Shown here: positions 10,195 to 40,242 of the stretch, piece by piece | Layout: each line of letters opens with the position of its first letter | Numbering within the stretch: the stretch's first letter is position 1 | Source of the DNA: an uncultured Candidatus Saccharibacteria bacterium | GTDB lineage: Bacteria; Patescibacteriota; Minisyncoccia; Sungbacterales; JACQCQ01 | DNA length: 64,000 nt | Reading direction: 5' to 3' | NCBI GenBank assembly: GCA_964494945.1 | Contig: CAZBTX010000001.1 | Location: forward strand, 3,088 to 67,087 | Program-made: the position numbers and the translations under genes | Notes under the pieces: generated by a model | What the model was told of the DNA's origin: nothing | The model's database searches: none | The model's input: the letters and a program-made list of their open reading frames with translations, nothing else

Positions 10195-10211
10195 AAGAAA
10201 GGAGGCGCGGC

Positions 10212-15001: not shown

Positions 15002-15003
15002 AA

Positions 15004-17013: not shown

Positions 17014-17459
17014 TGGAAAGTATTTGGGAGTACGTAATACCGTTTTCGAGAGAAGTACTCACGGGAATAGTCACTGACCGAAGTCCCGCGCATATCGGTC
17101 CCTACGCTCATGCTATTGATTTTCTCATGCCGCCTGGTTCAGTAGTCCTCGCGCCACGTGGTGGGCGAGTAATAGCGATGAAAGATGATGGCAGGTTAGG
17201 GGGCCCCAGCCGCTCGTTTGCCGAGCACGCGAACTATGTTACGCTCGCGCATGGCCAGAACGAGTTTTCCGAACTCGTGCATCTCGCACCAGCATCGATT
17301 CGGGTGTCAGTTGGCCAATGGGTCGAGGAAGGAGACCCACTCTGTCTTACTGGACTGACCGGCTGGCTTTATGAGCCCCATCTCCATTTTATGGTCTTTG
17401 TAACACTCCCCGACAGAAGTTTTCAGAGCCGCAGGGCTCGGTTCAGGGTTCCGCTATGA
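17013..17459 (+). CDS. Peptidase M23 (LytM)-domain protein. The start is uncertain: a TTG at 17013 overlaps the priA start codon, and the next in-frame ATG is at 17130.
   Basis: HAIDF...HANYVTLAH...HLHFMV resembles the HxxxD/HxH M23 signature. Confidence 0.5.
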   Translation: MESIWEYVIPFSREVLTGIVTDRSPAHIGPYAHAIDFLMPPGSVVLAPRGGRVIAMKDDGRLGGPSRSFAEHANYVTLAHGQNEFSELVHLAPASIRVSVGQWVEEGDPLCLTGLTGWLYEPHLHFMVFVTLPDRSFQSRRARFRVPL

Positions 17460-17530
17460 TATTGTGCGGGACCCTTTTGTATTTAGATTGACGCATACAT
17501 ATTTCTTTGAGAAGATAGCTTTGATGGAGT

Positions 17531-17644
17531 CCCGTTAGAAGCCGCGATCGCGGTTCGCGGGTTTAAATAGCAATGAAGCTAGAACTAATAAAACAATCTA
17601 ATTCGCAGAAAGCGACTCCGATCGCGATCTGCTTCTAACGGGAT
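17531..17644. repeat. Second copy of repeat family 2 (CCCGTTAGAAGC termini), inverted relative to 13283-13394
   Basis: GCAGAAAGCGACTCCGATCGCGATCTGCTTCTAACGGG is the reverse complement of the left arm of the first copy. ATGGAG lies directly outside both ends. Confidence 0.6.
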
Positions 17645-18842
17645 GGAGCCCGCGGGACGCACAAAAAGATTGATGATAGCGTTGGCGTTTATTGTCGTCG
17701 GCGCTTCTTTCTTTTTGGGGATCGGGGTGGGGTACATCAACCGCCCGGCGGTGGAAAAAGTGGCGGGAATTTTAAATAAAGAAACGGCCAAGCCCGCTGA
17801 AGTGGATTTCAACCAGTTCTGGGACGTCTGGCGCCGCATTGAGGAGAGATACGTGGATAAAGATAAAATTGAGAGAGGTAAACTGATCGACGGAGCGATT
17901 GCCGGTATGGTCAAGGCCGTAGGTGACCCTTATACCGTTTACCTGCCGCCGCAGGAATCCAAAGAATTTCAAGCCGAGATCAAGGGCAGTTTTGAGGGTA
18001 TCGGCGCGGAGATCGGCATCCGCAAAAATATTTTGACGATCATAGCGCCGCTTAAGAATTCACCCGCGGAAAAATCGGGTTTGAAAGCAGGTGATAAAAT
18101 TTTAAAGATTGGAGACACCATAACCGCCGACTTATCCGTGGAAGAAGCCGTGCGTCTGATACGCGGACCCAAAGGTACTAAAGTTAAACTCACTATATTT
18201 CGCGATAACGACGGCGAACCGAAAGAGATATTTGTCACGCGTGACGTTATCGTGGTTCCCAACATTAAAACGGAATTGAAACCCGGTGGCGTTTTCTACA
18301 TACAGCTTTCTCATTTTTCCGAAAATTCATCCAGCGATTTCAAAAAAGCCGTGGCGGAGTTCCAGCGTTCGGGGTCAAACAAGCTGATTTTGGACCTTAG
18401 GAACAATCCCGGCGGCTTTTTGACGGCCGCAGTTGATATCGCCAGCTGGTTTTTGCCGGCCGGAGACACGGTGGTTACGGAACATTGGAGCAACAGCAAA
18501 GACGAGGTTTATCGGAGCAAGGGATATAAAGTTCTCGAGTCAACACCGGTCGTAGTTTTAGTAAATCAAGGGTCGGCTTCGGCCTCCGAGATCGTGGCCG
18601 GTGCTCTACGCGACAAAAGAGGAGCGAAACTCGTTGGCGAAAAAACTTTCGGCAAAGGGTCCGTGCAGGAGCTCCAGGATCTGGCCAAGGGCGCTTCGCT
18701 GAAAATTACCATCGCCAAGTGGTTAACCCCCTCCGGCAAATCCATAAACGAATCGGGGCTGGAGCCGGATTTCGCGGTCGCGGCGACCACGACGCCGGAT
18801 ATTGACCCGGTGCTGGAAAAGGGTCTGGGACTCCTAAGATAA
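17643..18842 (+). CDS. Carboxy-terminal processing protease (S41 family, CtpA-like). The start is probably the ATG at 17673.
   Basis: PDZ domain and S41 catalytic region (GSASASEIVAGAL...KTFGKGSVQ). Confidence 0.85.
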   Translation: MEPAGRTKRLMIALAFIVVGASFFLGIGVGYINRPAVEKVAGILNKETAKPAEVDFNQFWDVWRRIEERYVDKDKIERGKLIDGAIAGMVKAVGDPYTVYLPPQESKEFQAEIKGSFEGIGAEIGIRKNILTIIAPLKNSPAEKSGLKAGDKILKIGDTITADLSVEEAVRLIRGPKGTKVKLTIFRDNDGEPKEIFVTRDVIVVPNIKTELKPGGVFYIQLSHFSENSSSDFKKAVAEFQRSGSNKLILDLRNNPGGFLTAAVDIASWFLPAGDTVVTEHWSNSKDEVYRSKGYKVLESTPVVVLVNQGSASASEIVAGALRDKRGAKLVGEKTFGKGSVQELQDLAKGASLKITIAKWLTPSGKSINESGLEPDFAVAATTTPDIDPVLEKGLGLLR

Positions 18843-19020
18843 TTCAAAAATCAAAATGGAAAATGACGAGTAGAACGACTAATTAACCTAATTTCTAATT
18901 ATTCTAATCAAATCCCAATGTCTAATGACGCAATGATTTAAAATAATAATTAATGAGTCGTTGGACATTCAGGCATTAGACATTGATTAGATTAATTAGA
19001 ATAATTAGATATTCATATGG
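18843..19020. repeat. AT-rich intergenic palindromic element of the CTAAT-motif family
   Basis: Left arm CTAATTAACCTAATTTCTAATTATTCTAATCAAATCCCAATGTCTAATGACG. Right arm CATTAGACATTGATTAGATTAATTAGAATAATTAGATATTC is its approximate reverse complement. Confidence 0.55.
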
Positions 19021-19021
19021 T

Positions 19022-19468
19022 ATGAAGGTAATTCTACTTCAAGACGTTTCAAAAGTTGGCCATAAAGGCGACATAAAGAACGTCTCTGACGGATACGCGC
19101 GGAATTTTCTCCTGGCGCGTAAGCTGGCCGTGGAAGCCACAAAAGAAATGCTCGCCCAAAAAACCAGCGAAGAAAAACGAAATGCCGCAAAAAGACATGA
19201 GGAGGCGAGAAAATACGAATGGCTTCGTGATCGGCTTTTAAGTATCACCATTCCTCTTTCTTTAAAATTGGGCGAGAAAGGCGAGGCCTTCGGCTCGATT
19301 GGGGCGGCAAAAATTCTGGAAGCGCTTTTAAAGCAGAAAATTGAACTGCAAAAGGAATGGCTGGTTCTGCCAAAGGCGTTAAAAACACTGGGCGAGCACC
19401 ATATACCCATTAATTTTCCGTACGGCGTGCAAGCCACCGTTAAGGTAATAATAGAGAAAGCCGCATGA
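19022..19468 (+). CDS. rplI: 50S ribosomal protein L9
   Basis: [31 protein letters not shown] is the L9 N-terminal domain. Confidence 0.9.
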
Positions 19469-19469
19469 T

Positions 19470-19564
19470 AATAAATTCAAAAATCAAAAATCAAAAGTCA
19501 AAATGACAAATCAAAATTCAAAAATAAATTGCCGAAGGCGTACCAAAATTTTGCACTTTGACTT
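19470..19564. repeat. Long imperfect AT-rich hairpin element ending at the pyrG start codon, with a GCCGAAGGC apical hairpin
   Basis: AATCAAAATGACAAATCAAAATTCAAAAAT and TTTGACTTTTGCATTTTGC also occur in 32370-32490 directly upstream of murG. Confidence 0.5.
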
Positions 19565-19585
19565 TTGCATTTTGCATTTGTAACT

Positions 19586-21214
19586 ATGACGCGTTTTATT
19601 TTTGTGGCGGGCGGGGTGATGTCGGGCATCGGCAAGGGCGTGGCCACGGCCTCCATTGGTAAAATTCTCTCCTCGCGTGGATTTCGCGTTTCGGCCGTAA
19701 AGATCGACCCGTATTTGAACGTAGACGCCGGCACCATGAATCCCATTGAGCACGGTGAGGTTTTCGTTACCGACGACGGCGTGGAGTGCGACCAGGACAT
19801 GGGGAATTACGAGCGCTTTTTGGACATAAATCTGCCTAGGGACAATTATATGACGACGGGCTCGGTCTATCAGACGGTGATAACCAGAGAACGCAATTTG
19901 GAATACGGCGGTCGGTGCGTGGAAATCGTGCCGCATATTCCCGAGGAGGTCATCGCGCGCTTGGATAGAGCCGCTAAAAAAGCCAAGGCCGATTTTCTTT
20001 TAGTTGAGGTCGGCGGCACGGTGGGGGAATATCAGAACCTTATTTTTCTGGAAGCCGGGCGCATGATGAATCTGGAGCGGCCGGGGCAGGTGATGTTCGT
20101 TCTGGTTTCATACTTGCCCGTACCTTCCTTCATCGGCGAGATGAAAACCAAGCCCACCCAGCAGGCGGTGAGGACCCTAAACGGCATCGGCATTCAGCCG
20201 GATATGATACTGGCCCGTTCCTCGCATCCTTTGGATGAACCGAGGAAAAGAAAAATATCAATTTTCTGCAACGTGTCGCCACAGGACGTTATCTCGGCGC
20301 CGGATGTTTCTTCCATTTACGATGTGCCGCTTAATTTTGAGAAAGAAGGACTTGGGGACAGAGTATTGGTAAAATTCGGGTTAAAGCGGCGGCGGAACGG
20401 CCGTGATATGAAAGAATGGAAGCGTCTGGTGCTGCGCGCGAAGAGAGTAAAAACGCCGGTGAAAATCGGAATTGTCGGCAAATACTTCGGCACCGGCAAT
20501 TTCACGCTTTCCGATTCGTACCTTTCCGTGATAGAAGCCATTAAGCACGCTTCCTGGGCCGAAGGCCGGAAGCCGGAAATAAAGTGGTTGGACGCCGAAT
20601 CATACGAAAAATCGGCCAAAAATCTGGAAGAGCTTAAAAAGTTTGACGGCATAATCGTGCCCGGCGGATTTGGTTCTCGCGGGATTGAGGGAAAGATAAA
20701 GGTCATTGAATACTGCAGAAAAAAGAAAATCCCGTTTTTGGGATTATGTTATGGGCTTCAATTGGCGGTGATTGAGTTTGCCCGAAATGTTTGCAAGTTG
20801 AGGAGCGCTAACACGACGGAAATTGACGCGAAAACCAAGCATCCAGTGATACACACTCTGCCGGAGCAGTTGATGTACATTCAAGAAAAAAAGATGGGCG
20901 GGTCCATGCGGCTCGGCGCTTACACTTGCGAGTTGAAGCCCGGGACAAAAGCCGCAAGAGCTTATGGCGAGCATATGGTTTCCGAGCGCCACCGCCACCG
21001 CTACGAGGTTAATAATGAGTACCGCGAAATTCTAGAGAAAAAAGGGCTTGTTGTCTCCGGCCTAAATCCAGAGCGGAATTTGATTGAAATCATGGAGCTT
21101 AAAAATCATCCCTTCTTTCTAGGCACCCAAGCGCACCCTGAATTGAAATCTCGGCCGCTTCATCCGCATCCATTGTTTAGAGCGTTCGTCCGGGCCGCGA
21201 AAAACCGTAAATAA
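19586..21214 (+). CDS. pyrG: CTP synthase
   Basis: N-terminal synthetase domain (FVAGGVMSGIGKG) and C-terminal GATase with the GLCYGLQ active-site Cys. Confidence 0.95.
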   Translation: MTRFIFVAGGVMSGIGKGVATASIGKILSSRGFRVSAVKIDPYLNVDAGTMNPIEHGEVFVTDDGVECDQDMGNYERFLDINLPRDNYMTTGSVYQTVITRERNLEYGGRCVEIVPHIPEEVIARLDRAAKKAKADFLLVEVGGTVGEYQNLIFLEAGRMMNLERPGQVMFVLVSYLPVPSFIGEMKTKPTQQAVRTLNGIGIQPDMILARSSHPLDEPRKRKISIFCNVSPQDVISAPDVSSIYDVPLNFEKEGLGDRVLVKFGLKRRRNGRDMKEWKRLVLRAKRVKTPVKIGIVGKYFGTGNFTLSDSYLSVIEAIKHASWAEGRKPEIKWLDAESYEKSAKNLEELKKFDGIIVPGGFGSRGIEGKIKVIEYCRKKKIPFLGLCYGLQLAVIEFARNVCKLRSANTTEIDAKTKHPVIHTLPEQLMYIQEKKMGGSMRLGAYTCELKPGTKAARAYGEHMVSERHRHRYEVNNEYREILEKKGLVVSGLNPERNLIEIMELKNHPFFLGTQAHPELKSRPLHPHPLFRAFVRAAKNRK

Positions 21215-21224
21215 AAAAAATGAG

Positions 21225-21400
21225 GCGGGAGTCACGTCGCTTCTCTTGTCATACCATGCCGCTCTGCGGCCGGTTGCCCGTTAAGGCATGACGTGAGTGC
21301 GCGTTCCCGCCTCTGGGCTCCTAGGAGAGCCCGTTCAGATGGGTGCGAGCCATGGTAGGTACCTCCCCCGCTGGTCTGACCTCCCGATGGGGCTATTGTA
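21225..21400 (+). ncRNA. GC-rich segment with nested helices between pyrG and tRNA-Lys; candidate structured RNA or complex terminator
   Basis: Nested complementary pairs GAGGCGGGA/TCCCGCCTC, TCACGTC/GACGTGA, ATGCC/GGCAT and GGGCTC/GAGCCC, read directly. No known RNA family recognised. Confidence 0.25.
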
Positions 21401-21480
21401 CATATCTAAGGATTCTTGTCAAGGGTCGGAGAATTTAGTAGTATTATTGGGCCTACTTTTAAGCTAAAATCAAATATAAC

Positions 21481-21551
21481 CCTCCCATAGCTCAATGGCA
21501 GAGCAGTTGCCTTTTAAGCAATTGACCTAGGTTCGATTCCTAGTGGGAGGA
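21481..21551 (+). tRNA. tRNA-Lys (anticodon UUU)
   Basis: Manual cloverleaf: acceptor CCTCCCA/TGGGAGG, D-stem GCTC/GAGC, anticodon loop CTTTTAA, T-arm CTAGG-TTCGATT-CCTAG. No encoded CCA. Confidence 0.85.
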
Positions 21552-21559
21552 CAGTATAG

Positions 21560-21596
21560 GGGCCATTAGCATAGTGGCAGTGTCCCGACTTACATT
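21560..21596 (+). pseudogene. 5' half of a tRNA-Ala gene (acceptor, D-arm and part of the anticodon arm), truncated in the anticodon region
   Basis: GGGCCATTAGCATAGTGGCAGTGTCCCGACTTACAT matches 28 of 36 positions of the 5' half of the intact tRNA-Ala at 21970. Its acceptor strand GGGCCAT pairs with ATGGTCC of the 3' remnant at 22055-22095, with a G3:U70 pair. Confidence 0.55.
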
Positions 21597-21684
21597 AATA
21601 AGTTTAATCATAAGAAGTCGCGGATGCTCGATTTTCTTAAGAAAATCGAGCATCCGGTTTGTCCCGATTTATACAAATTTTTAA

Positions 21685-21930
21685 ATGTTTTATCTTTATG
21701 TTTTAAAATCAATTCAATTTGGGACCTACTATATTGGTAGTTGTAAAGATTTGCAGATTCGGCTAAGACAGCATAATAGAGGCAAGGTGAAGTCAACAAA
21801 GTTTCGAAAGCCATGGGAACTAGTACATTCAGAACGATTTATGACTTTATCTAAAGCTCGATCAAGAGAACTAGAACTCAAATCTTTAAAAAAGCGTATC
21901 GCATTGGAAAGGTTGATAAAACATTTCTAA
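21685..21930 (+). CDS. Small GIY-YIG nuclease-domain protein (COG2827/UPF0213-like, YhbQ-type)
   Basis: FYLYVLKS...GTYYIGSCKDLQIRLRQHNRG fits the GIY-(x10)-YIG motif plus the conserved R and HN/E region. It sits between tRNA-gene halves. Confidence 0.7.
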   Translation: MFYLYVLKSIQFGTYYIGSCKDLQIRLRQHNRGKVKSTKFRKPWELVHSERFMTLSKARSRELELKSLKKRIALERLIKHF

Positions 21931-21969
21931 AATTTGTGAAATAAATCGAAGATTCTCGACGGCAGAGGT

Positions 21970-22040
21970 GGGCCCTTAGCTTAGTGGCAGAGCACCCGGT
22001 TTGCATCCGGGAGATAGGAGTTCGATTCTCCTAGGGTCCA
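21970..22040 (+). tRNA. tRNA-Ala (anticodon UGC) embedded in a 13-bp extension of its acceptor stem
   Basis: Manual cloverleaf: G3:U70, anticodon loop TTTGCAT, T-arm AGGAG-TTCGATT-CTCCT. Flanking CGACGGCAGAGGT/ACCTCTGCCGTCG extends the acceptor helix. No encoded CCA. Confidence 0.8.
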
Positions 22041-22054
22041 CCTCTGCCGTCGGA

Positions 22055-22095
22055 ACATCCGGAAGGCGGGAGTTCGATTCTCCCATGGTCCACCA
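22055..22095 (+). pseudogene. 3' half of a tRNA-Ala gene (anticodon-stem 3' strand, variable loop, T-arm, acceptor 3' strand plus CCA)
   Basis: ACATCCGGAAGGCGGGAGTTCGATTCTCCCATGGTCCACCA is highly similar to the 3' half of the tRNA at 21970 and complementary to the acceptor strand of the 21560 remnant. Confidence 0.55.
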
Positions 22096-22096
22096 A

Positions 22097-22130
22097 TCTC
22101 AAAAACGCGCCCGCGGGCGCGTTTTTGAGA
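22097..22130. terminator. Bidirectional terminator TCTCAAAAACGCGCCCGC-GGGCGCGTTTTTGAGA
   Basis: 17-bp perfect palindrome with A/T runs on both sides. Confidence 0.7.
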
Positions 22131-22229
22131 TTGACCTCTGTTGCTCGTTGACGGCCGGTTTTTTGTATGCTATAGCTTGCGAAACGGTTTAAACGCCCTT
22201 TACCAATTTGGGAGAAGGAGAGGTGACCA

Positions 22230-23057
22230 GTGAAACAGAAATGGGGACGGATTCCGTTCGTTCTTCTGGCCGCGGCGGCCGTCATGCTGGCGGGGGTGCC
22301 TACTCTCGCCCGCGCTTTTGAGCCGACACGGCTTCTGCAGTGGAATCAGGAAGAGCGCCTTTCCGCGAATATCCTCGGCCGCTACTTTCTCCTGAACAAC
22401 CGGCCGGTCCAGCGGGGCACGCCGGAAAGCAGCTCCTCGGCGGCCTGGGAATACGGCCTGCGGCTGCAGTACCGCATTCTGGAAGTCCCGTCGCTCGGCA
22501 AGCTTGAGGCCTATGCCGACAGCGAGGGCTTCACGCACGAGGACGTTTTTGACAGCTGGCAGGTTCTGGTTCAGCTCGGCTGGACGCTGCGTAACTTCCG
22601 GGTTTCACTCGGGCACTTGCGCGAGCTGAATGTCGGACGCGGCAACCAGCACGGCGACGGAAGGCACGGCGCGTTCCAGCTTTGGGTGGGACCGGATGTC
22701 AAAGTCGTAGATACCGAGAAGTGGCTGGTTGACGCTTACGGACGTTATTTCATCAAGGCGAACATCCAGGCCTCCGTGAGCAACCGGCTGGACGAGGGGA
22801 ATGCGATGCTGGGAGAAGTCGGACTGCACGCGACCTATCGTCTCCTTCCTTACCTTTCCTTGAACGCATCTCCCTACGTTCTCGCGGACGACAAGGTTGA
22901 ACGCCTCGGTGTCTATCCTGCTGTCATCTTTGACGTAAGCAAGAAACTGCCGTTCGTTCCCGCGGGTATGTCGCTTGAGCTCGGGGGCAACTTCGGCTCT
23001 TCCGTTCATCGGCGCGAAGAAGTGGTTTGGTTCGGCCTTAACTGGAAACTGAAGTAG
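22230..23057 (+). CDS. Putative outer-membrane beta-barrel-type protein (MipA/OmpV- or DUF481-like). On a GC-rich island.
   Basis: Signal peptide, alternating amphipathic beta-strand pattern and a C-terminal aromatic-rich strand (VVWFGLNWKLK). RBS GGAGAAGGAGAGG. Confidence 0.35.
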   Translation: MKQKWGRIPFVLLAAAAVMLAGVPTLARAFEPTRLLQWNQEERLSANILGRYFLLNNRPVQRGTPESSSSAAWEYGLRLQYRILEVPSLGKLEAYADSEGFTHEDVFDSWQVLVQLGWTLRNFRVSLGHLRELNVGRGNQHGDGRHGAFQLWVGPDVKVVDTEKWLVDAYGRYFIKANIQASVSNRLDEGNAMLGEVGLHATYRLLPYLSLNASPYVLADDKVERLGVYPAVIFDVSKKLPFVPAGMSLELGGNFGSSVHRREEVVWFGLNWKLK

Positions 23058-23080
23058 CGTGCCGGCCAGCGGATTTGTGG

Positions 23081-23125
23081 GCGGCCTCGCCATCGGGCGA
23101 GGCCGCCTCTTCTTTTTGTTTTTTT
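23081..23125 (+). terminator. Terminator GGCGGCCTCGCC...GGCGAGGCCGCC followed by a T-run
   Basis: Perfect GC stem and TCTTCTTTTTGTTTTTTTG tail. Confidence 0.7.
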
Positions 23126-23292
23126 GTGCATGAAATGGCCTGTTTAGAAAACCATTTTTACTTTACTGGTAAACCGATTGCAAAAATACGGTTTTTATTG
23201 TATTTTCAAGATAAGTAGCAGTCCTTTGATGTGCTGGTCTTCAAGTGGGGACCTAACATAAATTTCGCAGGATCTGGAAAGAGAGGTGAGTC

Positions 23293-23658
23293 ATGAAGAG
23301 GTTCGTCGCCGTACTTCTCGTCGTCATCGCTGTCGCGATGCTGGCCGGGCCGGTCGAGGCGCACCGCCACCACTGGGGCGGCCACCACCACTGGGGTGGT
23401 TCGTACTGGTGGGGACCCGGTCCCTACTGGGCTCCAAACCCCCTCTGGGCACTGCCGTATTACGTTCCGCCGCCCGTCGTGCGGGAGAGGGTCATCGTCG
23501 TTCCGGCCCCACAAGAGGAGCCGCAGACCTACGTCCAGCAACAGTCGCCGCCCGTGCAGTACTACTGGCACTTCTGCCGAAGTGCGAATGGGTACTACCC
23601 CTACGTGCCAACGTGTCCGGAAGCGTGGGAGCGAATCCCAACACAACCGCCTAAGTAG
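23293..23658 (+). CDS. Secreted His/Pro/Trp-rich small protein with a C-terminal YYWHFC...YYPYVPTCPEAW motif
   Basis: Signal peptide. HRHHWGGHHHWGG repeat. The C-terminal aromatic/Cys motif is recalled from proteobacterial periplasmic proteins. Confidence 0.4.
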   Translation: MKRFVAVLLVVIAVAMLAGPVEAHRHHWGGHHHWGGSYWWGPGPYWAPNPLWALPYYVPPPVVRERVIVVPAPQEEPQTYVQQQSPPVQYYWHFCRSANGYYPYVPTCPEAWERIPTQPPK

Positions 23659-23680
23659 CGGCTAGAGAGGAGGTACGGAG

Positions 23681-24235
23681 ATGTTGAGAAAAAGCGCCAC
23701 GAGGGCTGTTGCTCTTCTCTTGCTTGCGGTCTTCGCCGCCGGTTGCGTATCGCTGCCGCGCGAGGGTCCGTCCAATCCTGCCTTGATGGGACATGGGAAG
23801 AATGTCGCCCAGTACTACCAGGACGACCAGAACTGCCGAAATCTGGCGCTGGCAAGAGTCGGAAAGTCGCCGCAGGAAGCCGCCAACGAAAGTCAGGTGG
23901 CAAGCACTATCATCGGTACTATCATCGGTGCGGCGGTGGGTGCGGCGATTGGCGCCGCCACTGGTAACGCCGGTGCTGGCGCTGCCATAGGCGCTGGCAC
24001 TGGTTTCGTCGGAGGCACAGCAGCTGGCGCAAGCGCTGCCGCCGAGTCGGCAGTTGCCTACCAGCGGCGGTACGATGCAGAATACAACGTCTGCATGTAC
24101 AACGCCGGTCACCAGGTCCTAGGGCGTCAGGCGGTTCCGCAGTACGCGCCGCCGCCCTCACCTCCTCCGGGTTATGCGCCCCCGCCTCCTCCCGGTACAC
24201 CGCCACCGCCCCCTCCGGGAGTTCTGCCCCGGTGA
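23681..24235 (+). CDS. Lipoprotein with a glycine-zipper domain (SlyB / 17-kDa-antigen-like) and a proline-rich tail
   Basis: Lipobox LAVFAAGC. IIGTIIGAAVGAAIGAATGNAGAGAAIGAGTG is a GxxxG zipper. C-terminal PPPxP repeats. Confidence 0.55.
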   Translation: MLRKSATRAVALLLLAVFAAGCVSLPREGPSNPALMGHGKNVAQYYQDDQNCRNLALARVGKSPQEAANESQVASTIIGTIIGAAVGAAIGAATGNAGAGAAIGAGTGFVGGTAAGASAAAESAVAYQRRYDAEYNVCMYNAGHQVLGRQAVPQYAPPPSPPPGYAPPPPPGTPPPPPPGVLPR

Positions 24236-24293
24236 ACGCTGGTCTCGCAAGAGTCCATGGCGGGGTGCAAGTGAGAATCATTCGAAGGCCGTC

Positions 24294-24347
24294 GCGGCCG
24301 GGCAGATGTAGTTGCTCTACATCTCGCCCGGCCGCTCTTTGTTTTTT
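24294..24347 (+). terminator. Terminator GCGGCCGGGCAGATGTAG...CTACATCTCGCCCGGCCGC followed by a T-run
   Basis: Long GC-rich perfect inverted repeat, read directly. Confidence 0.6.
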
Positions 24348-24408
24348 AAGTAGCAACCGCAAGTTTATCGTGATAAAATGCCTACAGTACGAATAATTTC
24401 TGGATATT

Positions 24409-25806
24409 ATGCAAAGGACGCTAACTCAAGAAACACCGGATAAAAAAGGGGAGACCGTTACCATAAAAGGCTGGGTGGACGGCAGGCGCGACCACGGAAA
24501 AATAATCTTTATTGACTTACGCGACCGCACAGGCCTTGTGCAGGTTGTTTTTACTCCCGCGGGCGGAGAAGTTTACGACCTGGCGAATCAGCTAAGGGAC
24601 GAATGGGTGGTGGAGATCAAGGGAGTTGTCGCCAAGCGCCCGGAAAATATGCGAAATCCCGAATTAGCCACGGGCGAAATTGAACTGCAGGCATCCGAAC
24701 TCCGCGTTTTGAACCAGTCCCAGACGCCGCCCTTCCCCATTCACGGCGACGGACGCGAAATTGAAGAGGAGTTGCGTTTGAAATATCGTTACTTGGATTT
24801 GCGAAGAAGTCGGCTTCAGAAGAATTTAAGATTGCGGCATGAAATCATCCTCTTTTTGCGGAATTACTTGACTAAAGCGGGGTTTGTGGAAGTGGAAACG
24901 CCGATCCTGACCAAGGGCACGCCCGAGGGGGCGCGCGAATATGTCGTGCCCTCGCGCATTTATCCTGGGAATTTCTATGTTTTGCCCCAGTCTCCCCAGC
25001 AGTATAAACAGCTTCTGATGGTGGCGGGCTTGGAGAAATATTTTCAGATCGCCCGATGTTTTCGCGACGAGGACCAAAGAGGCGACAGACAGCCAGAATT
25101 TACTCAATTGGATCTCGAAATGAGTTTTGTAACCCAAGAAGATGTTTTAAAACTTGGAGAAGAACTTATGAGCGCCTTAGTTAGCGCCGTGATGCCGCAT
25201 AAGAAAATCTCCCAGATGCCCTGGCCGCGCCTGACGTATAAAGAAGCCATGGATAAATTCGGCACCGACAAACCCGACTTGCGGCGCGACAAAAATGATC
25301 CGGATGAACTGGCGTTTTGCTGGATTCACGATTTTCCCATGTTTGAGAAGAACGAGGACGGCGAGATCCAAACCGTACATCATCCCTTTACGCGGCCGCA
25401 TCCGGAAGATGAGGCGCGGCTTGAACCCGATCCTTTAGGCGTCCGGGCCCTGGCCTATGATATCGTTTTGAACGGATATGAAATTTCGTCAGGCAGTATT
25501 CGCGTGCATGAGAGAGCATTGCAGAACCGGATCTTTAAGATGCTGGGGCTTTCGGATGAAGAAATCCAATTAAAATTCGGCCATATGCTGGAAGCTTTCG
25601 CATACGGCGCGCCGCCCCACGGCGGGTTCGCGCCGGGGCTTGACAGGATCATCATGATACTAGCCGGTGAGCCGAATATTCCCGAAGTCATAGCTTTTCC
25701 CAAAACCGGCAACGCCCGTGACCCAATGATGGGCTCTCCGGCCCCGCTAAATCCCAAGCAACTTAAGGAACTTCATTTAAAGACAGAAAAAAAGATAGAA
25801 AAATAA
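24409..25806 (+). CDS. aspS: Aspartate--tRNA ligase, short (archaeal/non-discriminating-type) form
   Basis: N-terminal OB anticodon-binding domain and class II core motifs (FRDEDQRGDRQPEFTQLD, GGSIR). 465 aa, with no bacterial insertion domain. Confidence 0.85.
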   Translation: MQRTLTQETPDKKGETVTIKGWVDGRRDHGKIIFIDLRDRTGLVQVVFTPAGGEVYDLANQLRDEWVVEIKGVVAKRPENMRNPELATGEIELQASELRVLNQSQTPPFPIHGDGREIEEELRLKYRYLDLRRSRLQKNLRLRHEIILFLRNYLTKAGFVEVETPILTKGTPEGAREYVVPSRIYPGNFYVLPQSPQQYKQLLMVAGLEKYFQIARCFRDEDQRGDRQPEFTQLDLEMSFVTQEDVLKLGEELMSALVSAVMPHKKISQMPWPRLTYKEAMDKFGTDKPDLRRDKNDPDELAFCWIHDFPMFEKNEDGEIQTVHHPFTRPHPEDEARLEPDPLGVRALAYDIVLNGYEISSGSIRVHERALQNRIFKMLGLSDEEIQLKFGHMLEAFAYGAPPHGGFAPGLDRIIMILAGEPNIPEVIAFPKTGNARDPMMGSPAPLNPKQLKELHLKTEKKIEK

Positions 25807-25817
25807 GCATTATCTAT

Positions 25818-25840
25818 AAGTTCAATAGAATATTCTATTG
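25818..25840. promoter_or_regulatory. Operator-like site AAGTTCAATAGAATATTCTATTG containing the perfect palindrome CAATAGAATATTCTATTG
   Basis: 18-bp perfect palindrome 13 bp upstream of the ATG of the TrpR-like gene. Its inverted twin is at 26278-26299. Confidence 0.5.
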
Positions 25841-25852
25841 TACCAATTACGG

Positions 25853-26266
25853 ATGCCTAAGGTTTCCCGCAATATATTATCAGAAGAAGTGCATCATCAG
25901 ATAATGGATGGGCTGGTTAGAAGTTTTGCCAGAACCAGCGACGAAGCCAAAATTAAGAAGTTCATGAATGATCCATTTACCCCCACAGAAAAAATCATGT
26001 TAGCCAAACGGCTTATGGCGTCTGTGCTTTTACAAAGAGGATATGGGTATTTGGCGATTTGTCGGATGCTTAAGCTTAGCAAGGCGACTGTAAACTTCAT
26101 TAAACGCGACATTGAGCGTTCCGGAGAAGGATACCGCTTGATTTATGAGAGTATTTTTAAGGAGAAGGGAAGTCGCTTGAATAAATGGCTTGAGGCATTG
26201 CGTTTACCTATGAAGGGATCACGCCGTGACATGCGCCGCTGGAAAAAGGCTCTTTACGAGCTTTGA
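25853..26266 (+). CDS. TrpR-related (YerC/YecD-family) small DNA-binding protein
   Basis: FTPTEKIMLAKRLMASVLLQRGYGYLAICRMLKLSKATV is the Trp-repressor-like HTH pattern. A paralog is at 39813-40235. Confidence 0.6.
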   Translation: MPKVSRNILSEEVHHQIMDGLVRSFARTSDEAKIKKFMNDPFTPTEKIMLAKRLMASVLLQRGYGYLAICRMLKLSKATVNFIKRDIERSGEGYRLIYESIFKEKGSRLNKWLEALRLPMKGSRRDMRRWKKALYEL

Positions 26267-26277
26267 GCTAAAGGTAT

Positions 26278-26299
26278 GATAGAATATTCTATTGAACTT
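26278..26299. promoter_or_regulatory. Inverted twin GATAGAATATTCTATTGAACTT of the site at 25818
   Basis: Shares ATAGAATATTCTATTGAACTT, the reverse complement of the upstream site. Immediately upstream of scpA. Confidence 0.45.
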
Positions 26300-26301
26300 A
26301 T

Positions 26302-27024
26302 ATGAGGCCGAAGTATTACGTAAAGCAGGAAAAGTTTGAAGGTCCGTTGGACCTTCTTTTGGAGTTGATAACCAAGGAAAAACTTCCGATAAACGAGATT
26401 TCTCTTTCCAGTGTCACCGAAGAATATTTGGCGGAAGTGAAAAAGATGGAAACGATTGACCAGGAAGCGCTGGCCGAATTCTTGGTGATAGCGGCCCAGC
26501 TTATGCTTTTAAAATCCAGATCGCTTCTACCGCATCTGGCCTTGTCGGAAGAGGAAGAAGAATCCATTAGCGACCTGGAAAGACGTTTGCAAGAATATGC
26601 CAAGATCAAAGAACTTGCCAAAGAGCTGAAATTTATAGAGAGTCGGGGTAATCACATTTTTTCACGTGAGCCGTATCTTGGGTTACCTGTGGTATTTTAT
26701 CCGCCACCGGGGCTTAGAGCAGGCGTTCTCGCGTTCATTTTCCAGACGCTTTTGGCGGCCATCCCCGCCGTAAAGTCGCTGGCCGAAGAAAAAATAAAGA
26801 GAGTAATTTCACTGGAAGAAAAGATACGTGAGATCCAGTCGCTGCTGACGGCCAAAGTTGAGCGGGTATTCTCGGATATCATAAAAGGCAGCAAGGAAAA
26901 AATTGAAGTAGTGGTATCTTTTCTCGCCATTTTGGAATTGGCCAAACAAAAGCTTATCTCGCTGCACCAAGATGAGGCCTTCAATGATATTATGATAAGA
27001 GCCAACAGCCATGAAAAACCTTAA
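26302..27024 (+). CDS. scpA: Segregation and condensation protein A
   Basis: YYVKQEKFEGPLDLLLELI N-terminal ScpA signature. Overlaps scpB downstream. Confidence 0.8.
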   Translation: MRPKYYVKQEKFEGPLDLLLELITKEKLPINEISLSSVTEEYLAEVKKMETIDQEALAEFLVIAAQLMLLKSRSLLPHLALSEEEEESISDLERRLQEYAKIKELAKELKFIESRGNHIFSREPYLGLPVVFYPPPGLRAGVLAFIFQTLLAAIPAVKSLAEEKIKRVISLEEKIREIQSLLTAKVERVFSDIIKGSKEKIEVVVSFLAILELAKQKLISLHQDEAFNDIMIRANSHEKP

Positions 27025-27562
27025 ATCCAAAATTGAAAGCATCTTATTTTTGGCGGGCGAGCCGATGGCTTTGGCTCGTTTGGCAAAGATCGTTAAAGAA
27101 AAACCTAATGCCGTAGAAGCAGCGCTTAAAGAACTGGAACGCGAGTACAATGAGCGAGGTATCAGGATATTGCGCCATGACGGCGAATGGCAGTTAGGCA
27201 CCGCTCCAGAAAATGCGCCGGTTCTGGAGGATTTGGTGAAGAGCGAGTTTACCGAAGAGCTTTCCCGCGCGGCACTGGAAACTATCTCTGTCATCGCTTA
27301 TAAGGGGCCTATGACGAGGGCCGAAATTGAGCATATCCGTGGAGTGAATTCGTCATTTTCCTTGCGCAACTTGTTGCTTAGGGGCTTGGTGGAAAGAATT
27401 GAAAATCCCAAAGATGCCCGGTCTTATTTATATAACGTCAGCATGGATTTTCTGAAATATCTGGGCCTCGCTAACCGCGAAGCCCTACCGGAGTGGCGAA
27501 CTCTTAAAGAAGCAAAAACTCCCCAAATTGATGAGGTCGCGAATAAAGACGCGGCCGGGTAA
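27011..27562 (+). CDS. scpB: Segregation and condensation protein B
   Basis: IESILFLAGEP...ALETISVIAYKGPMTRAEIEHIRGV is the ScpB winged-helix pattern. Confidence 0.8.
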   Translation: MKNLKSKIESILFLAGEPMALARLAKIVKEKPNAVEAALKELEREYNERGIRILRHDGEWQLGTAPENAPVLEDLVKSEFTEELSRAALETISVIAYKGPMTRAEIEHIRGVNSSFSLRNLLLRGLVERIENPKDARSYLYNVSMDFLKYLGLANREALPEWRTLKEAKTPQIDEVANKDAAG

Positions 27563-28508
27563 ACCAAATATGCCAAATTTTAAATTATGGCTTCCCGCGT
27601 TTGTTTTTCTGACGTCTTTGCTAGGAACGTCAATTTGGATAAGTCAAAAAGAGCGGGAACTTAATCTTAAAAATTCCGGGGCGGCAATTTATAATCCCGT
27701 ACCAGTAGCTACTGGAAAACATTCATTGCCGACATTGAATACAGCAGATATAAAAGCCGAAGCGTTTGTGGTCGGCACGGCATCCGGCAAGATAATTGCC
27801 GAAAAAAATAAAGACGTTAAAGTTCCAATTGCTAGTATCACTAAAATTATGACGGGGCTCCTCCTGGAAGAACGGGGGAGTGATGCCGTGATTTGGCTAA
27901 CACCTGAAGCCAAAAAAGCCAAACCGAAATTGAGCGCTTTTCCGGCCGGCACCATACTTTCCAAAGACGTAGCCGCAACGCTTCTCTTGGTTGAATCGGA
28001 CAACGACATAGCCGAGTCGATCGCTCGAACTCTCGGCATATTTTTTGATGCCAAAGTGTCGTTCCCGCGCGAGTCATTTATTAAGGGTATGAATAGAAAA
28101 GCCGTCTCACTCGGCATGCAAAATACCCATTTTGCAAATCCTACGGGCCTGGATAGTCCGGAACATTATTCCACGGCTTCCGACATATTCCGCTTGGTAC
28201 AGTACGTTTCTCAAAAATATCCTGGTTTTTGGGATCGCACCGCGAACCCGCCTGATAGTGTCGCCTCTCTTTCCGGGGCCAAAATTGACTTGACGAGTTC
28301 CAATTTGCTGGCCGGGTATCCGGGACTTATCGGCGGCAAGACCGGCCTCACCGACGAAGCGCTGGGAGCGCTGGTGCTTAAATACCGCACCGAATATTTT
28401 CCCGAGGATTTGATCATAGTCATTCTCCGGTCTGCCGACCGTTTTAAAGACGGAGAAGCGTTTTTGCGCGAAATAGAAAAAGCGTTTAAAAAGAGCATCG
28501 GCCGCTGA
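27528..28508 (+). CDS. D-alanyl-D-alanine carboxypeptidase (S11, PBP5-like). The start is probably at 27570.
   Basis: SITK (SxxK), SDN and KTG motifs in order. Confidence 0.8.
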   Translation: MMRSRIKTRPGKPNMPNFKLWLPAFVFLTSLLGTSIWISQKERELNLKNSGAAIYNPVPVATGKHSLPTLNTADIKAEAFVVGTASGKIIAEKNKDVKVPIASITKIMTGLLLEERGSDAVIWLTPEAKKAKPKLSAFPAGTILSKDVAATLLLVESDNDIAESIARTLGIFFDAKVSFPRESFIKGMNRKAVSLGMQNTHFANPTGLDSPEHYSTASDIFRLVQYVSQKYPGFWDRTANPPDSVASLSGAKIDLTSSNLLAGYPGLIGGKTGLTDEALGALVLKYRTEYFPEDLIIVILRSADRFKDGEAFLREIEKAFKKSIGR

Positions 28509-28577
28509 CGCTTCACGTCCGGCTTGATTTTACGTATCTCGCCATAAATTTTAGAGCAAGGTATAATAAGCCCATAA

Positions 28578-29663
28578 TTGGGCGTATTTATGGGCGGAGA
28601 ACGAGAACTCATTTTAAACGTGTTGAAGGTCTTTGGATTGGCTGCTTTTGCCTTTTTGGTTGCCATGGCTTGGACGCCGGTGCTCACGAATTTTCTTTAC
28701 AAGCATCGTCTGTGGAGGAAGAAAGCCAGAACTCACTCTCCCGACGGCACCACGACACCGATCTTTAATTCGATGCACAAGGAGAAGGAAGTTTCGGTGC
28801 CGCGGCTCGGCGGCCTTTTAATTTGGGGAACGACGCTCGGAATTACTCTGGGGTTTTGGCTTTTAACATATTTTACGGATATACCGCTTTTGGGAAAGAT
28901 GAATTTTCTTTCGCGAAATCAGACCTGGTTGCCGCTTTTCACGCTGGTGGCCGCTTCGCTTTTAGGGTTGGCCGACGACATTTTGCAAATTTACGAACGC
29001 GGAGGATACATCGCCGGGGGCGTGCCTTATCGCATACGTTTGGCCTTAGTCGCGCTGATAGGTGTCGCGGGCGGATGGTGGTTCCACTATAAATTGGGAT
29101 TCTCCGCGCTATATGTTCCGTTTCTCGGCGACATTCCCATTGACGGTCTTTATATACCTCTTTTTGTGATAGTCATGGTTGCGATGTTTTCTTCAAGCGT
29201 GATTGATGGATTGGACGGCCTGGCGGGCGGCGTTTTTGCTTCCATTTTTGCCGCTTTTGGAGGCATAGCGTTTTTTCAGAATCAGATAGACCTGGCGGCT
29301 TTCTCGGCCGTGATGCTGGGGTCTCTTTTGGCCTTCCTTTGGTTCAATATTCCGCCGGCGCGGTTTTACATGGGAGAGACGGGTAGCTTGGGGCTGGTCG
29401 CGGTCATTACGGTGCTGGCGTTTCTCACCAATTCCGTGATCGTTCTTCCCATCATCGGCTTATTGCTGGTGGTGGAATCGCTTTCGGTAATTTTGCAGTT
29501 CGCTTCTAAAAAGTTCAGAGGCAAGAAAGTATTTCTAGTGGCACCCATTCATCACCACTTTGAAGCCAAGGGCTGGCCGGCCTATAAAGTTACCATGCGT
29601 TTTTGGGTGGTGAGCGTGGTATTTGCCATTATTGGGATGGTCATAGCCCTGGTCGGCAGGTAA
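28578..29663 (+). CDS. mraY: Phospho-N-acetylmuramoyl-pentapeptide transferase
   Basis: Multi-TM protein. DD-x2-D motif region (GLADDILQ) and the PIHHHFE-like C-terminal motif. Confidence 0.85.
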   Translation: MGVFMGGERELILNVLKVFGLAAFAFLVAMAWTPVLTNFLYKHRLWRKKARTHSPDGTTTPIFNSMHKEKEVSVPRLGGLLIWGTTLGITLGFWLLTYFTDIPLLGKMNFLSRNQTWLPLFTLVAASLLGLADDILQIYERGGYIAGGVPYRIRLALVALIGVAGGWWFHYKLGFSALYVPFLGDIPIDGLYIPLFVIVMVAMFSSSVIDGLDGLAGGVFASIFAAFGGIAFFQNQIDLAAFSAVMLGSLLAFLWFNIPPARFYMGETGSLGLVAVITVLAFLTNSVIVLPIIGLLLVVESLSVILQFASKKFRGKKVFLVAPIHHHFEAKGWPAYKVTMRFWVVSVVFAIIGMVIALVGR

Positions 29664-29667
29664 ACAT

Positions 29668-31236
29668 ATGTTGGATCTGATTATCAGAGACGGAACTATC
29701 ATTGATGGCACGGGCAGGGCTGGATTTTCAGCCGATGTCGGCGTAAAAGATGGGCTCATTAGCGAGATAAGGAACTTAAACGAGGTCAAAGCGGAAAAAA
29801 TCATTGAAGCGGGTGGGCGATATGTGACTCCCGGTTTTATTGACATCACCAACCACTCCGACGTCACAGCGGCCATATTTCAGGCACCCCTGATGGAAAA
29901 TTTAATGCGTCAGGGCATTACCACGATTATCGGCGGGAACTGCGGTGTGTCTTTGGCGCCCTTAACGGACCCGGACGTGATACACGGCATCAGAAAATGG
30001 GTTCAAACCTCGTCAATCAACGTTAATTGGCTCACGGTAGGGGAGTACTTGGCTCAAATAGAGAGTTTGGGTATTGGCATAAATTTTGGGACGCTGGTAG
30101 GTCATGGCACGATACGCCGAGGCGTTACGCATGATGCCGTTCGTCCCTTAAAACTGGAAGAGTTAGCCAAAGTAAAACTCATGCTGCAAGACGCTATCCG
30201 CCAGGGCGCTTTGGGATTCTCCACCAATCTTGCAAGTTCCCATGAGCTTCACGCTACCACCGAAGAACTAATAGAGATGGCGCGCGTGCTTGCAACCGAG
30301 GGCGGTGTTTATAAGACCCACTTAAGAGATGAAGGAGCCAATTTAATATCGGCGGTCAATGAAGCACTCCGTATCGGCGCTGAAGCCGGGGCGCCGGTCA
30401 TCATATCTCATTTAAAAGCCATAGGCAGGCAATCTTGGCCTCTCATGAAACGTGCCGTCAAAATGATAGAAACGGATTCCAAAAGCGGGCATAAAGTCAT
30501 GTTTGACATTTCTCCTTACCGCACCACCGGCTCGCAGCTTTATATGTTGTTGCCGGCATGGGCGCGCGAAGGCGGATTTTCTGCCATGTTGCCGCGACTT
30601 CGCGACGCCACCTTAAGACCTAGAATTGTCGCTGATTTAAAGGCGTTATCTTTGCATTTCGGTAAATTCTGGGTGTCTGAAGCCGAGGACGGTTTAAGTA
30701 CGGGGAAAACGCTAGAAGCTCTGGCCGAGAAGATGGGTACGGACCCGCACGAGACGGTATTGGAACTTTTGATCGCCAATCGCGGCCGCGTCTCTATTAT
30801 TGGAAAAACACTTCATCCCAAGAACGTTGAAATAGGCATAAAAAGCGCTTTTAGTATGGTTGCTTCCAACGGCAGCGCTTATGATATGGCCGCCATACCT
30901 CTGGATTTCCCGCATCCGAGGTCTTTCGGCTCTTTTCCGCATTTCCTGCACGTTTACACGAGGGACAAGCAAATTCTTTCCTGGGAAGACGCGGTCATGA
31001 AAATAACTTCAGCGCCCGCAGAAGCAATGAGGATTAAGAATCGCGGTAAGATCCTTAAAAATTATGCAGCCGATATGGTCGTGCTTAACCCTGATACCAT
31101 TTGTGATGAAGCGACGTATAAGAATCCTTTCCGCGTTCCCGAAGGCATTGATGCCGTGGTAGTTAATGGAGGAGTCGCGCTGGAAAAAGGACAAACTGCG
31201 GGTATTCGTAAGGGTAAGATAATACGCAATTCGTAA
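29668..31236 (+). CDS. N-acyl-D-amino-acid deacylase (D-aminoacylase) family amidohydrolase
   Basis: LIIRDGTIIDGTG...PGFIDITNHSD is a metal-binding amidohydrolase start. Length and pattern are typical of D-aminoacylases. Confidence 0.7.
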   Translation: MLDLIIRDGTIIDGTGRAGFSADVGVKDGLISEIRNLNEVKAEKIIEAGGRYVTPGFIDITNHSDVTAAIFQAPLMENLMRQGITTIIGGNCGVSLAPLTDPDVIHGIRKWVQTSSINVNWLTVGEYLAQIESLGIGINFGTLVGHGTIRRGVTHDAVRPLKLEELAKVKLMLQDAIRQGALGFSTNLASSHELHATTEELIEMARVLATEGGVYKTHLRDEGANLISAVNEALRIGAEAGAPVIISHLKAIGRQSWPLMKRAVKMIETDSKSGHKVMFDISPYRTTGSQLYMLLPAWAREGGFSAMLPRLRDATLRPRIVADLKALSLHFGKFWVSEAEDGLSTGKTLEALAEKMGTDPHETVLELLIANRGRVSIIGKTLHPKNVEIGIKSAFSMVASNGSAYDMAAIPLDFPHPRSFGSFPHFLHVYTRDKQILSWEDAVMKITSAPAEAMRIKNRGKILKNYAADMVVLNPDTICDEATYKNPFRVPEGIDAVVVNGGVALEKGQTAGIRKGKIIRNS

Positions 31237-31240
31237 CGCG

Positions 31241-32335: not shown

Positions 32336-32369
32336 CAAATTCGAAATTTAAAAATCCTTATACGGCCGA

Positions 32370-32490: not shown

Positions 32491-32491
32491 T

Positions 32492-40235: not shown

Positions 40236-40242
40236 ATGCTTT

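Follow-up and report, generated by a model that had tools for sequence, protein, structure and literature searches.

A GC-rich segment at 22134-24347 of the 64-kb stretch of DNA analysed here (the window) carries three open reading frames (ORFs) on the + strand whose products are all predicted to be exported. The segment spans 2.2 kb between a tRNA/GIY-YIG locus on its left and aspS on its right, in a genome of the Candidate Phyla Radiation (CPR), that of a Candidatus Sungbacteria bacterium. We read it as genuine Sungbacteria DNA in which two independently transcribed foreign units, acquired horizontally, lie 3' of a rearranged tRNA cluster, and we put the probability of this joint reading at about 0.72. 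One unit is a single gene for a predicted outer-membrane-type β-barrel (ORF1); the other is a pair of genes forming a conserved envelope cassette (ORF2 and ORF3). The reading builds on the observed anatomy, homologies and gene linkage of the segment, on its compositional deviation and on its assembly support. An earlier note on this DNA had placed three ORFs directly downstream of the tRNA/GIY-YIG locus, and they do lie there, at 22230-24235, after tRNA-Lys, the GIY-YIG ORF and tRNA-Ala. The segment and its borders comprise:

22094-22133, both strands: perfect 40-nucleotide (nt) palindrome, CAATCTCAAAAACGCGCCCG / CGGGCGCGTTTTTGAGATTG, with a G+C-rich core and A/T runs on its flanks, terminator-like.
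22230-23057, + strand: ORF1, 275 amino acids (aa), GTG start.
23079-23124, + strand: intrinsic terminator of ORF1, a 13-bp stem with 11 GC pairs followed by a T-run.
About 23125-23275, + strand: AT-rich spacer, GC ~0.38, which splits the segment into two GC-rich blocks.
23293-23658, + strand: ORF2, 121 aa.
23681-24235, + strand: ORF3, 184 aa, with its start 22 nt past ORF2.
24294-24347, + strand: terminator of ORF2-ORF3 (-37 kcal/mol, z = -6, then a T-run), the right boundary of the segment.
24409-25806, + strand: aspS (aspartyl-tRNA synthetase, by its Pfam families), the backbone gene to the right of the segment.

A Shine-Dalgarno-like sequence precedes each of the three ORFs, as previously claimed; the claim that each also has its own terminator does not hold, ORF2 and ORF3 having the one at 24294-24347 in common. 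The 22-nt gap between these two genes contains a ribosome-binding site only, and because it has no hairpin and the terminator is common to both, the genes make up two transcription units instead of three: a monocistronic ORF1 and an ORF2-ORF3 operon with a single terminator. The AT-rich spacer is presumed to hold the promoter region of this operon. ORF1, ORF2 and ORF3 are the only homology-supported ORFs within 22134-24347; the antisense ORFs were treated as high-GC shadow frames because homology backs the + strand frames.

The segment is compositionally foreign. The GC contents of ORF1, ORF2 and ORF3 are 0.60, 0.65 and 0.65, and their GC contents at third codon positions (GC3) are 0.73, 0.78 and 0.63, whereas the 45 other long ORFs of the window (the backbone) have a GC of 0.491±0.041 and a GC3 of 0.521±0.064. 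ORF1 and ORF2 thus lie 3-4 standard deviations (sd) above the backbone in GC3. The GC-rich character first ascribed to the segment is borne out by these values, and a check of GC consistency along the contig sets its genes apart from the backbone.

The backbone is a CPR genome, Candidatus Sungbacteria. NCBI names the ORF1 product 'hypothetical protein HYT39_00310 [Candidatus Sungbacteria bacterium]'. The window has housekeeping and peptidoglycan genes (PriA, L9, CTP synthase, ScpA/B, MraY, FtsW, MurG, GluRS, CysRS, DnaK/GrpE/HrcA/DnaJ, DnaB, RecR, GlmM), and it also encodes a lamin-tail-domain protein, one 2355-aa protein and many family-less proteins. No outer-membrane biogenesis genes were found within the 64-kb window, which covers part of the genome only; with the NCBI name, this agrees with the earlier note's view of the backbone organism as CPR-like. 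Patescibacteria are reported to lack an outer membrane (PMC12102498, PMC8871954).

Independent assemblies support the continuity of the segment with its surroundings. A 23-kb contig of the metagenome-assembled genome (MAG) GCA_016181625.1 is 100% identical to the window across 14650-33057, loci L001 and L102 (GCA_016181625.1) are likewise 100% identical to it, and both segment junctions are carried by two NCBI MAG contigs (23 kb and 135 kb). Logan single-run assemblies SRR12113430, SRR12113420 and SRR12113383, also 100% identical to the window, reproduce the junction between the island and aspS; their two longest contigs start at 22104, cross the island and enter aspS, one of them reaching scpA. 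Position 22104 lies inside the palindrome that directly follows a tRNA piece and forms the left boundary of the GC-rich segment, and the break there is probably a graph break at k = 31 on a perfect 40-nt palindrome rather than a biological boundary. A search for an island-less allele found none: no contig with the same aspS is without the island. All copies in this population are 100% identical, leaving no sequence variation to show selection. The segment is genuine chromosomal DNA and a chimeric assembly is unlikely; the contamination of the assembly once suggested is contradicted by the island-aspS junction in the three Logan assemblies and by the two MAG contigs that span both junctions.

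The ORF1 protein begins with MKQKWGR, followed by a hydrophobic core and LARA/FEP, with Sec cleavage predicted after A29; A29, F30 and P32 are invariant among close relatives. The mature protein has ~245 residues and no cysteine. ORF1 had no match in Pfam and NCBIfam, and a word-indexed homologue search returned the query only. An exhaustive HMMER scan of 1.84 billion representatives recovered 20 relatives with 27-43% identity, most of them 260-300 aa long with a common signal-peptide junction, A-x-A/F-E-P. The family profile had no match among PDB sequences, and the best curated-family match of any relative was to DUF481 (E = 0.15, 1 of 21 sequences).

Single-sequence AlphaFold2 prediction of ORF1 was useless (mean predicted local distance difference test score, pLDDT, 32). 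The model built from ORF1 plus its 20 relatives had 12 long strands, with a pLDDT of 88.3 and a predicted template modelling (TM) score of 0.81. A Foldseek search of the PDB with this model gave 120 matches at E <= 1e-3, and the 50 listed were all outer-membrane barrels, with TM-scores of 0.44-0.49; barrels among the matches listed were OmpG, KdgM/NanC, PcoB, OMPLA, autotransporter and intimin β-domains, and FapF. Searching BFVD, a viral structure library, gave the same barrel class, including a DUF481 protein. The hydrophobic/polar alternation of the ORF1 strands was 2.38, compared with 1.40±0.30 in shuffles (3.3 sd above). ORF1 is predicted from this model to be a 12-stranded outer-membrane-type β-barrel. 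Like small monomeric outer-membrane barrels (OmpG 2f1c, KdgM/NanC 4fqe/2wjr, PcoB 7pge, OMPLA 1qd6, autotransporter β-domains; possibly DUF481/YdiY), it combines a signal peptide, a mature length of this order, 12 amphipathic antiparallel strands and an absence of cysteine; unlike them, it has no sequence-level membership, its TM-scores are just 0.44-0.49, and it ends in Lys/Arg instead of Phe/Tyr/Trp. The last strand is amphipathic and Trp-rich (VVWFGLNWKLK; family consensus WxRLxWEL[KR]), so that the barrel with an aromatic C-terminal strand proposed at the outset stands as a predicted barrel with a Trp-rich strand, but without the terminal aromatic. A further difference from diderm outer-membrane barrels is that several hosts of the ORF1 family are CPR, reported to be without an outer membrane (PMC12102498, PMC8871954).

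Metagenomes were scanned for the ORF1 family with an 8-sequence alignment, the full 21-sequence alignment being without a conserved stretch. Seven groups have genomic context:

Group 1: the window, Candidatus Sungbacteria.
Group 2: contigs L096, L097, L098, L091 and L092; L096 is from MAG GCA_964362625.1.
Group 3: contigs L101 and L093, with a syntenic BipA-PyrB-CdaA neighbourhood, GC 0.39-0.40 and DUF5652 adjoining.
Group 4: contig L100, with GatB, MgtE, a DUF5715 protein (also in L096) and a tRNA-Gly 240 nt upstream.
Group 5: contigs L094 and L095, with the gene between uvrA and groES-groEL, near rpoBC, on a 43-kb contig.
Group 6: contig L099, low in GC, with an amino-acid permease, NifU, Fe-SOD and a ferredoxin.
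Group 7: contigs L087-L090, high-GC (0.63) soil contigs.

Within group 2, the exact M48 peptidase of L096 is listed by NCBI under 'Patescibacteria group bacterium', and the contigs L091, L092, L097 and L098 derive from 0.1 and 0.2 µm filter fractions of Hainich groundwater. Two of the low-GC contigs that carry ORF1 relatives stem from the 0.1 µm fraction of this groundwater. Groups 3-6 are probably CPR-like, judging from their GC, the filter fraction of L093 in group 3 and the neighbouring domains. In groups 2-7 the GC of the ORF1 relative roughly equals that of its surroundings, and the comparison of L096 with L092 gave a dN/dS of 0.135 over 180 codons, which points to purifying selection on the relatives in these two contigs. 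The contexts are not syntenic between groups, and the neighbour-joining tree of the family is star-like, with no close partner for the window copy. No ORF1 relatives were found in viral contigs, and tblastn against plasmids gave no match.

Relatives at native GC in other CPR or CPR-like contigs, together with the dN/dS of 0.135, argue that ORF1 is not simply a diderm import. In our reading, it belongs to a rare family that is maintained by several CPR lineages and also occurs in some high-GC soil bacteria. The GC3 of 0.73 of the window copy nevertheless suggests a comparatively recent arrival in this genome, possibly from another lineage carrying the family.

Two details of these contexts may be recorded. 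In L100 a tRNA-Gly (7688-7759) is followed ~240 nt downstream by the ORF1 relative (8001-8897), an arrangement as in the window; this is two of seven contexts, too few for a pattern. Soil contig L087 encodes, beside its ORF1 relative, a small secreted Pro/Tyr-rich protein of 137 aa (2982-3395, - strand) with PPPPPP runs and a Tyr-rich C-terminus, loosely ORF2-like in composition and without the Cys motif.

The second unit has a different distribution. ORF2 carries a signal peptide, probably cleaved after VEA23, a tandem His-rich unit (HRHHWGG / HHHWGG), a Pro/Tyr/Trp-rich linker and a C-terminal two-Cys motif, YYWHFCRSANGYYPYVPTCPEAW. Residues 92-112, WHFCRSANGYYPYVPTCPEAW, fit the working pattern [YW]W[YH][YF]C-x5-YYPY[VI]-x2-C-x2,3-W. 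No Pfam or NCBIfam family was found for ORF2, and a direct search gave three relatives only, all having the C-terminus in common (best identity 44%). The consensus of the motif from 60 ORF2-like ORFs is YWYYC-x4-G-YYPYV-K-x-CPGGW-x2-V-x-P-x-P; the window ORF2 keeps the conserved positions, with conservative substitutions at a few. The YYPYV motif of this His/Pro-rich protein, which the earlier note cited, is thus diagnostic of a real family, and a full-text literature search for its core returned nothing. The His-rich stretch, with at least four His in 23 of the 60 ORF2 relatives, may bind metal, to judge by its composition.

ORF3 is a glycine-zipper lipoprotein. It matches Gly-zipper_YMGG (PF13441; 30.5 bits, cut-off 28.9) and Gly-zipper_OmpA (PF13436; 29.7 bits, cut-off 27), and has a lipobox (...LLLAVFAAG-C22) whose C22 is invariant in 24 sequences, a GPS motif, a C52/C138 pair, the zipper, a QRRYDxAYxQCMYAKGN box (QRRYD...CMY) and a poly-Pro tail. 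About 2000 full-length relatives have 45-53% identity to it, and every one of the 29 invariant columns of the full-length alignment is kept in the window ORF3. The lipobox Cys and GxxxG/AxxxG zipper are those of the glycine-zipper lipoproteins (PF13441, PF13436; E. coli YcfJ/YmgG, SlyB/Pcp, the Rickettsia 17-kDa antigen). Unlike YcfJ/YmgG, SlyB/Pcp and the 17-kDa antigen, however, ORF3 belongs to a subfamily with an extra Cys pair, the QRRYDxAYxQCMYAKGN box, the poly-Pro tail and an ORF2-type neighbour. It falls far below the NCBIfam cut-off for YcfJ (PRK11280: 26 vs 99 bits) and that for YiaD, and has no SlyB or Rick_17kDa match; the initial description as SlyB/17-kDa-antigen-like is therefore right as to the glycine-zipper lipoprotein and wrong as to the particular families.

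Genomes were scanned for ORF3 relatives at one genome per species; at least 503 loci were confirmed, and 79 were kept. Their source genomes are Desulfobacterota, Nitrospirota, Beta- and Gammaproteobacteria, Methylomirabilia and Hyphomicrobiaceae, plus two co-assembly bins with odd labels; a CPR label occurs in none of the 79. Of the 79, 75-77 have an ORF2-like gene as the direct upstream neighbour in the same orientation, with surroundings that are otherwise not conserved, and in L007 the ORF2-like and ORF3-like genes overlap by 4 nt at their stop and start codons. This arrangement marks ORF2-ORF3 as a tightly conserved and apparently translationally linked cassette. No ORF3 relatives were found in viral contigs, and none by tblastn against plasmids, where low-complexity masking may hide ORF3.

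The ORF3 relatives nearest to the window copy (P0006, P0008 and P0039, ~52% identity; also P0007) form a subclade with an extra C-terminal domain of ~100 aa (…GDPTRGQFxNxTRW…GWSLxFxExDFR). P0039 is without an ORF2 partner and stands beside a DUF748/AsmA-like gene, a diderm context; in L104 (7998-8879), too, the gene has no ORF2-type partner upstream.

The two units are not linked elsewhere: there is no ORF1 relative within ±4 kb of the 79 ORF2-ORF3 cassettes, and no ORF2 or ORF3 relative beside any ORF1 relative. The products are of types associated with diderm envelopes, as the earlier note had recognized (a predicted outer-membrane-type barrel, a cassette family and a glycine-zipper lipoprotein), and the idea that such proteins are foreign to CPR holds for ORF2-ORF3, with 79 loci and no CPR, but not for ORF1, whose family occurs at native GC in a CPR-labelled MAG. 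The taxonomy of the relatives divides accordingly: those of ORF2-ORF3 are diderm-labelled bar the two odd bins, and those of ORF1 are partly CPR. The notion of one three-gene island is at odds with the absence of linkage between ORF1 and ORF2-ORF3 anywhere else.

To the left of the segment, the tRNA locus contains:

21481-21552, + strand: tRNA-Lys(UUU), backbone (ARAGORN; Rfam tRNA, 73 bits).
21560-21580, + strand: disrupted tRNA-Ala(UGC), piece 1, the acceptor 5' strand and 5' part of the D-arm, with 90% identity to the 5' end of the intact tRNA-Ala.
21648-21661, + strand: disrupted tRNA-Ala, piece 2, the D-stem 3' strand, the anticodon stem 5' strand and the loop to G35 (from the repeat and reconstruction).
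21685-21930, + strand: GIY-YIG nuclease ORF, 81 aa, inside the anticodon-loop interruption of this tRNA-Ala (Pfam GIY-YIG, E = 2e-14).
21970-22042, + strand: intact tRNA-Ala(UGC) (ARAGORN, Rfam).
22056-22096, + strand: disrupted tRNA-Ala, piece 3, the 3' part of the anticodon loop to CCA, repeating the intact tRNA's 3' half in direct orientation (85%).

When joined, the three tRNA-Ala pieces fold into a cloverleaf that shows compensatory changes when compared with the intact copy, and ARAGORN recognises the product as tRNA-Ala(tgc). Both interruptions of the split tRNA start with TGTCCCGAYTTAYA. The one in the anticodon loop, 21662-22055, carries the GIY-YIG ORF together with the intact tRNA-Ala; the acceptor stem of this tRNA gains 13 base pairs from its flanks (21957-21969 / 22040-22052). 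A group I intron was considered for the GIY-YIG insertion and rejected, Rfam giving no match at E <= 1. The interruption looks like a free-standing GIY-YIG cassette bringing its own replacement tRNA, and the palindrome at 22094-22133 has the look of a terminator acting in both directions.

Free-standing GIY-YIG homing endonuclease genes occur in tRNA clusters, such as SegB of phage T4. As in those systems, the GIY-YIG ORF of the window lies in a tRNA cluster, and the resident tRNA-Ala is cut exactly at the cassette; unlike them, the 81-aa protein is a bare catalytic domain, and the cassette carries a complete replacement tRNA-Ala. This comparison concerns the neighbouring tRNA locus and not the island genes. 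Mobile DNA has clearly reshaped that locus. This agrees with a spot prone to recombination but bears in no direct way on the entry of the island genes.

The 'extra' 3' half of a tRNA that borders the island on its left is piece 3. Since it belongs to the tRNA-Ala split by the GIY-YIG cassette, it is not an att site. No integrase (tyrosine or serine recombinase) or transposase was found between 22134 and 24347, nor did a direct repeat of the 3' end of the tRNA turn up at the distal boundary (24236-24408); the only repeat of the tRNA 3' end is proximal, at 22056-22094. The segment resembles integrase-mediated tRNA islands in its position immediately 3' of tRNA genes, its deviant GC and its accessory surface genes, but differs from them in having no integrase and no distal repeat, and at 2.2 kb it is far below their typical size. 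The integration hotspot at the tRNA that had been invoked thus finds no backing in an integrase or a distal repeat. Nor do the best identities among billions of proteins, 43% for ORF1, 44% for ORF2 and ~52% for ORF3, bear out a recent transfer from a diderm host or neighbour.

Elsewhere in the window there are further GC-rich ORFs without a Pfam family, at 9112-10194 (GC 0.55), 10212-11399 (GC 0.59, GC3 0.72) and 5898-6365 (GC 0.59). Those at 9112-11399 and 5898-6365 look cytoplasmic, and the contig may contain more foreign DNA. The 2355-aa protein is encoded at 40550-47617 on the - strand and has an N-terminal HTH_17 match only; its wider neighbourhood (37754-48545) includes a PD-(D/E)XK/Cas4-like nuclease (37754-38926) and a PaaX-central/Cas2-like protein (47955-48545).

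On the reading as two acquired units, the products of all three genes would cross the cytoplasmic membrane via Sec. ORF3 would be lipid-anchored after Lgt/Lsp processing, on the outer face of the cytoplasmic membrane in a monoderm cell; in diderm hosts a lipoprotein of this type, having no Asp at +2, would be sent to the outer membrane. A disulfide-stabilised envelope complex might form between ORF2, which has two invariant Cys, and ORF3, which adds a further two; the window encodes a DsbA-like protein at 4237-4956. Horizontal transfer would have brought in both units, with a diderm lineage as the ultimate source of ORF2-ORF3, and would have left no integrase or att scar. Because CPR are reported to have no outer membrane, the barrel would most likely work outside the cytoplasmic membrane of its producer; speculatively, a diderm partner cell could be the site, with the barrel at its surface or in its outer membrane. 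We see three possibilities: the barrel inserts into a partner's outer membrane, the producer has an unrecognised outer layer, or the protein has no function.

Several points weigh against the reading as two acquired units. The GC of ORF3 is inflated by its Gly/Ala/Pro-rich composition, its GC3 being just 1.7 sd over the backbone, and GC-rich genes occur elsewhere in the window too, for example at 10212-11399 with its GC3 of 0.72. With neither an integrase or transposase nor a flanking repeat, insertion is deduced from composition and phyletic pattern only, and with best relatives at ~43-52% identity no donor has been sampled. The left junction lies outside the independent Logan assemblies, which break in the 40-nt palindrome, so that its support is from the two MAG assemblies only. 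An explicit CPR label applies only to groups 1 and 2 of the ORF1 family, and the scan pattern for ORF3, QCMY[AS][KA]G[NH], is not matched by the ORF3 of the window itself, so divergent CPR copies could be missed. Finally, the barrel rests on prediction, and ORF1, like most of its relatives, ends in Lys/Arg without the terminal aromatic residue of the classical signal for the β-barrel assembly machinery (BAM).

The segment might instead be transient, non-functional acquired DNA on its way to loss, which we consider unlikely while granting it some weight. Its composition is not ameliorated, a BAM-type partner is not expected in a CPR cell, and with all copies 100% identical, selection is not visible in the population. 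The three ORFs are intact, however, with signal peptides, ribosome-binding sites and strong terminators; ORF3 has kept all the invariants of its family and ORF2 its motif positions, with conservative substitutions at a few of them; and ORF1 relatives in CPR-like genomes appear to be under purifying selection.

It is distinctly improbable that the three genes are ordinary, vertically inherited CPR envelope genes whose high GC reflects amino-acid composition or expression level. Such inheritance would suit an ORF1 family that is found in several genomes of CPR or CPR-like bacteria, where it has native GC and is subject to purifying selection, and other window genes reach a similar GC3. Against it, relatives of ORF2-ORF3 are without a CPR label in 79 loci and absent from the CPR-like loci with ORF1 relatives, ORF1 and ORF2 have a GC3 3-4 sd above the backbone, and only 20 clusters out of 1.84 billion representatives belong to the very rare ORF1 family, which has a star-like tree and non-syntenic contexts.

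Glycine-zipper lipoproteins such as SlyB associate with outer-membrane barrels, and the three genes, adjacent, on the same strand and similarly high in GC in both units, could on that ground be one functional outer-membrane module transferred together: a barrel, a SlyB-like lipoprotein encasing it and a periplasmic partner. We consider this very unlikely and dropped it for want of co-occurrence elsewhere, no cassette among the 79 being near an ORF1 relative and no ORF1 relative near ORF2 or ORF3 relatives, and a terminator and AT-rich spacer separate the two units. An assembly or binning artefact, with a diderm fragment joined to a CPR contig at the tRNA repeat, would account for the GC jump at both edges and for a left edge of tRNA repeats and palindrome where Logan contigs break, but is scarcely credible given a right junction (ORF3-aspS-Trp-repressor-like gene-scpA) that is 100% identical in three independent single-run assemblies, the 23-kb and 135-kb MAG contigs with both junctions and the lack of any island-less contig with this aspS.

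In sum, we read the segment as a small horizontally acquired islet of two unrelated units, not contamination, and its barrel family in CPR as a question worth pursuing. ORF2-ORF3 are a very widespread envelope cassette of Proteobacteria, Desulfobacterota and Nitrospirota, and their presence in a CPR genome would be a clean example of gene flow from diderms to CPR. If the barrel is mispredicted or inert cargo, the finding shrinks to an ordinary small islet of horizontal origin. CPR/Patescibacteria are taken to be monoderm epibionts, and little is known of the ways in which they obtain resources from their hosts. It is difficult to see how a selected outer-membrane-type barrel family recurring in CPR fits a cell with neither outer membrane nor BAM. 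One idea, which we regard as a long shot, is that 12-strand barrels without the classical BAM signal, kept by selection in several CPR lineages that lack an outer membrane, are exported effectors. Where the CPR cell touches a diderm host, they would enter the host's outer membrane and open a channel for metabolite uptake, and in this Sungbacteria population ORF2-ORF3, acquired from such hosts, would have joined the barrel; a less likely alternative is that some CPR lineages have an unrecognised outer lipid layer. A literature search on Patescibacteria with porin and episymbiont found nothing. The ORF1 barrel is a concrete, clonable candidate for a host-directed pore, or for an unrecognised feature of the CPR envelope.

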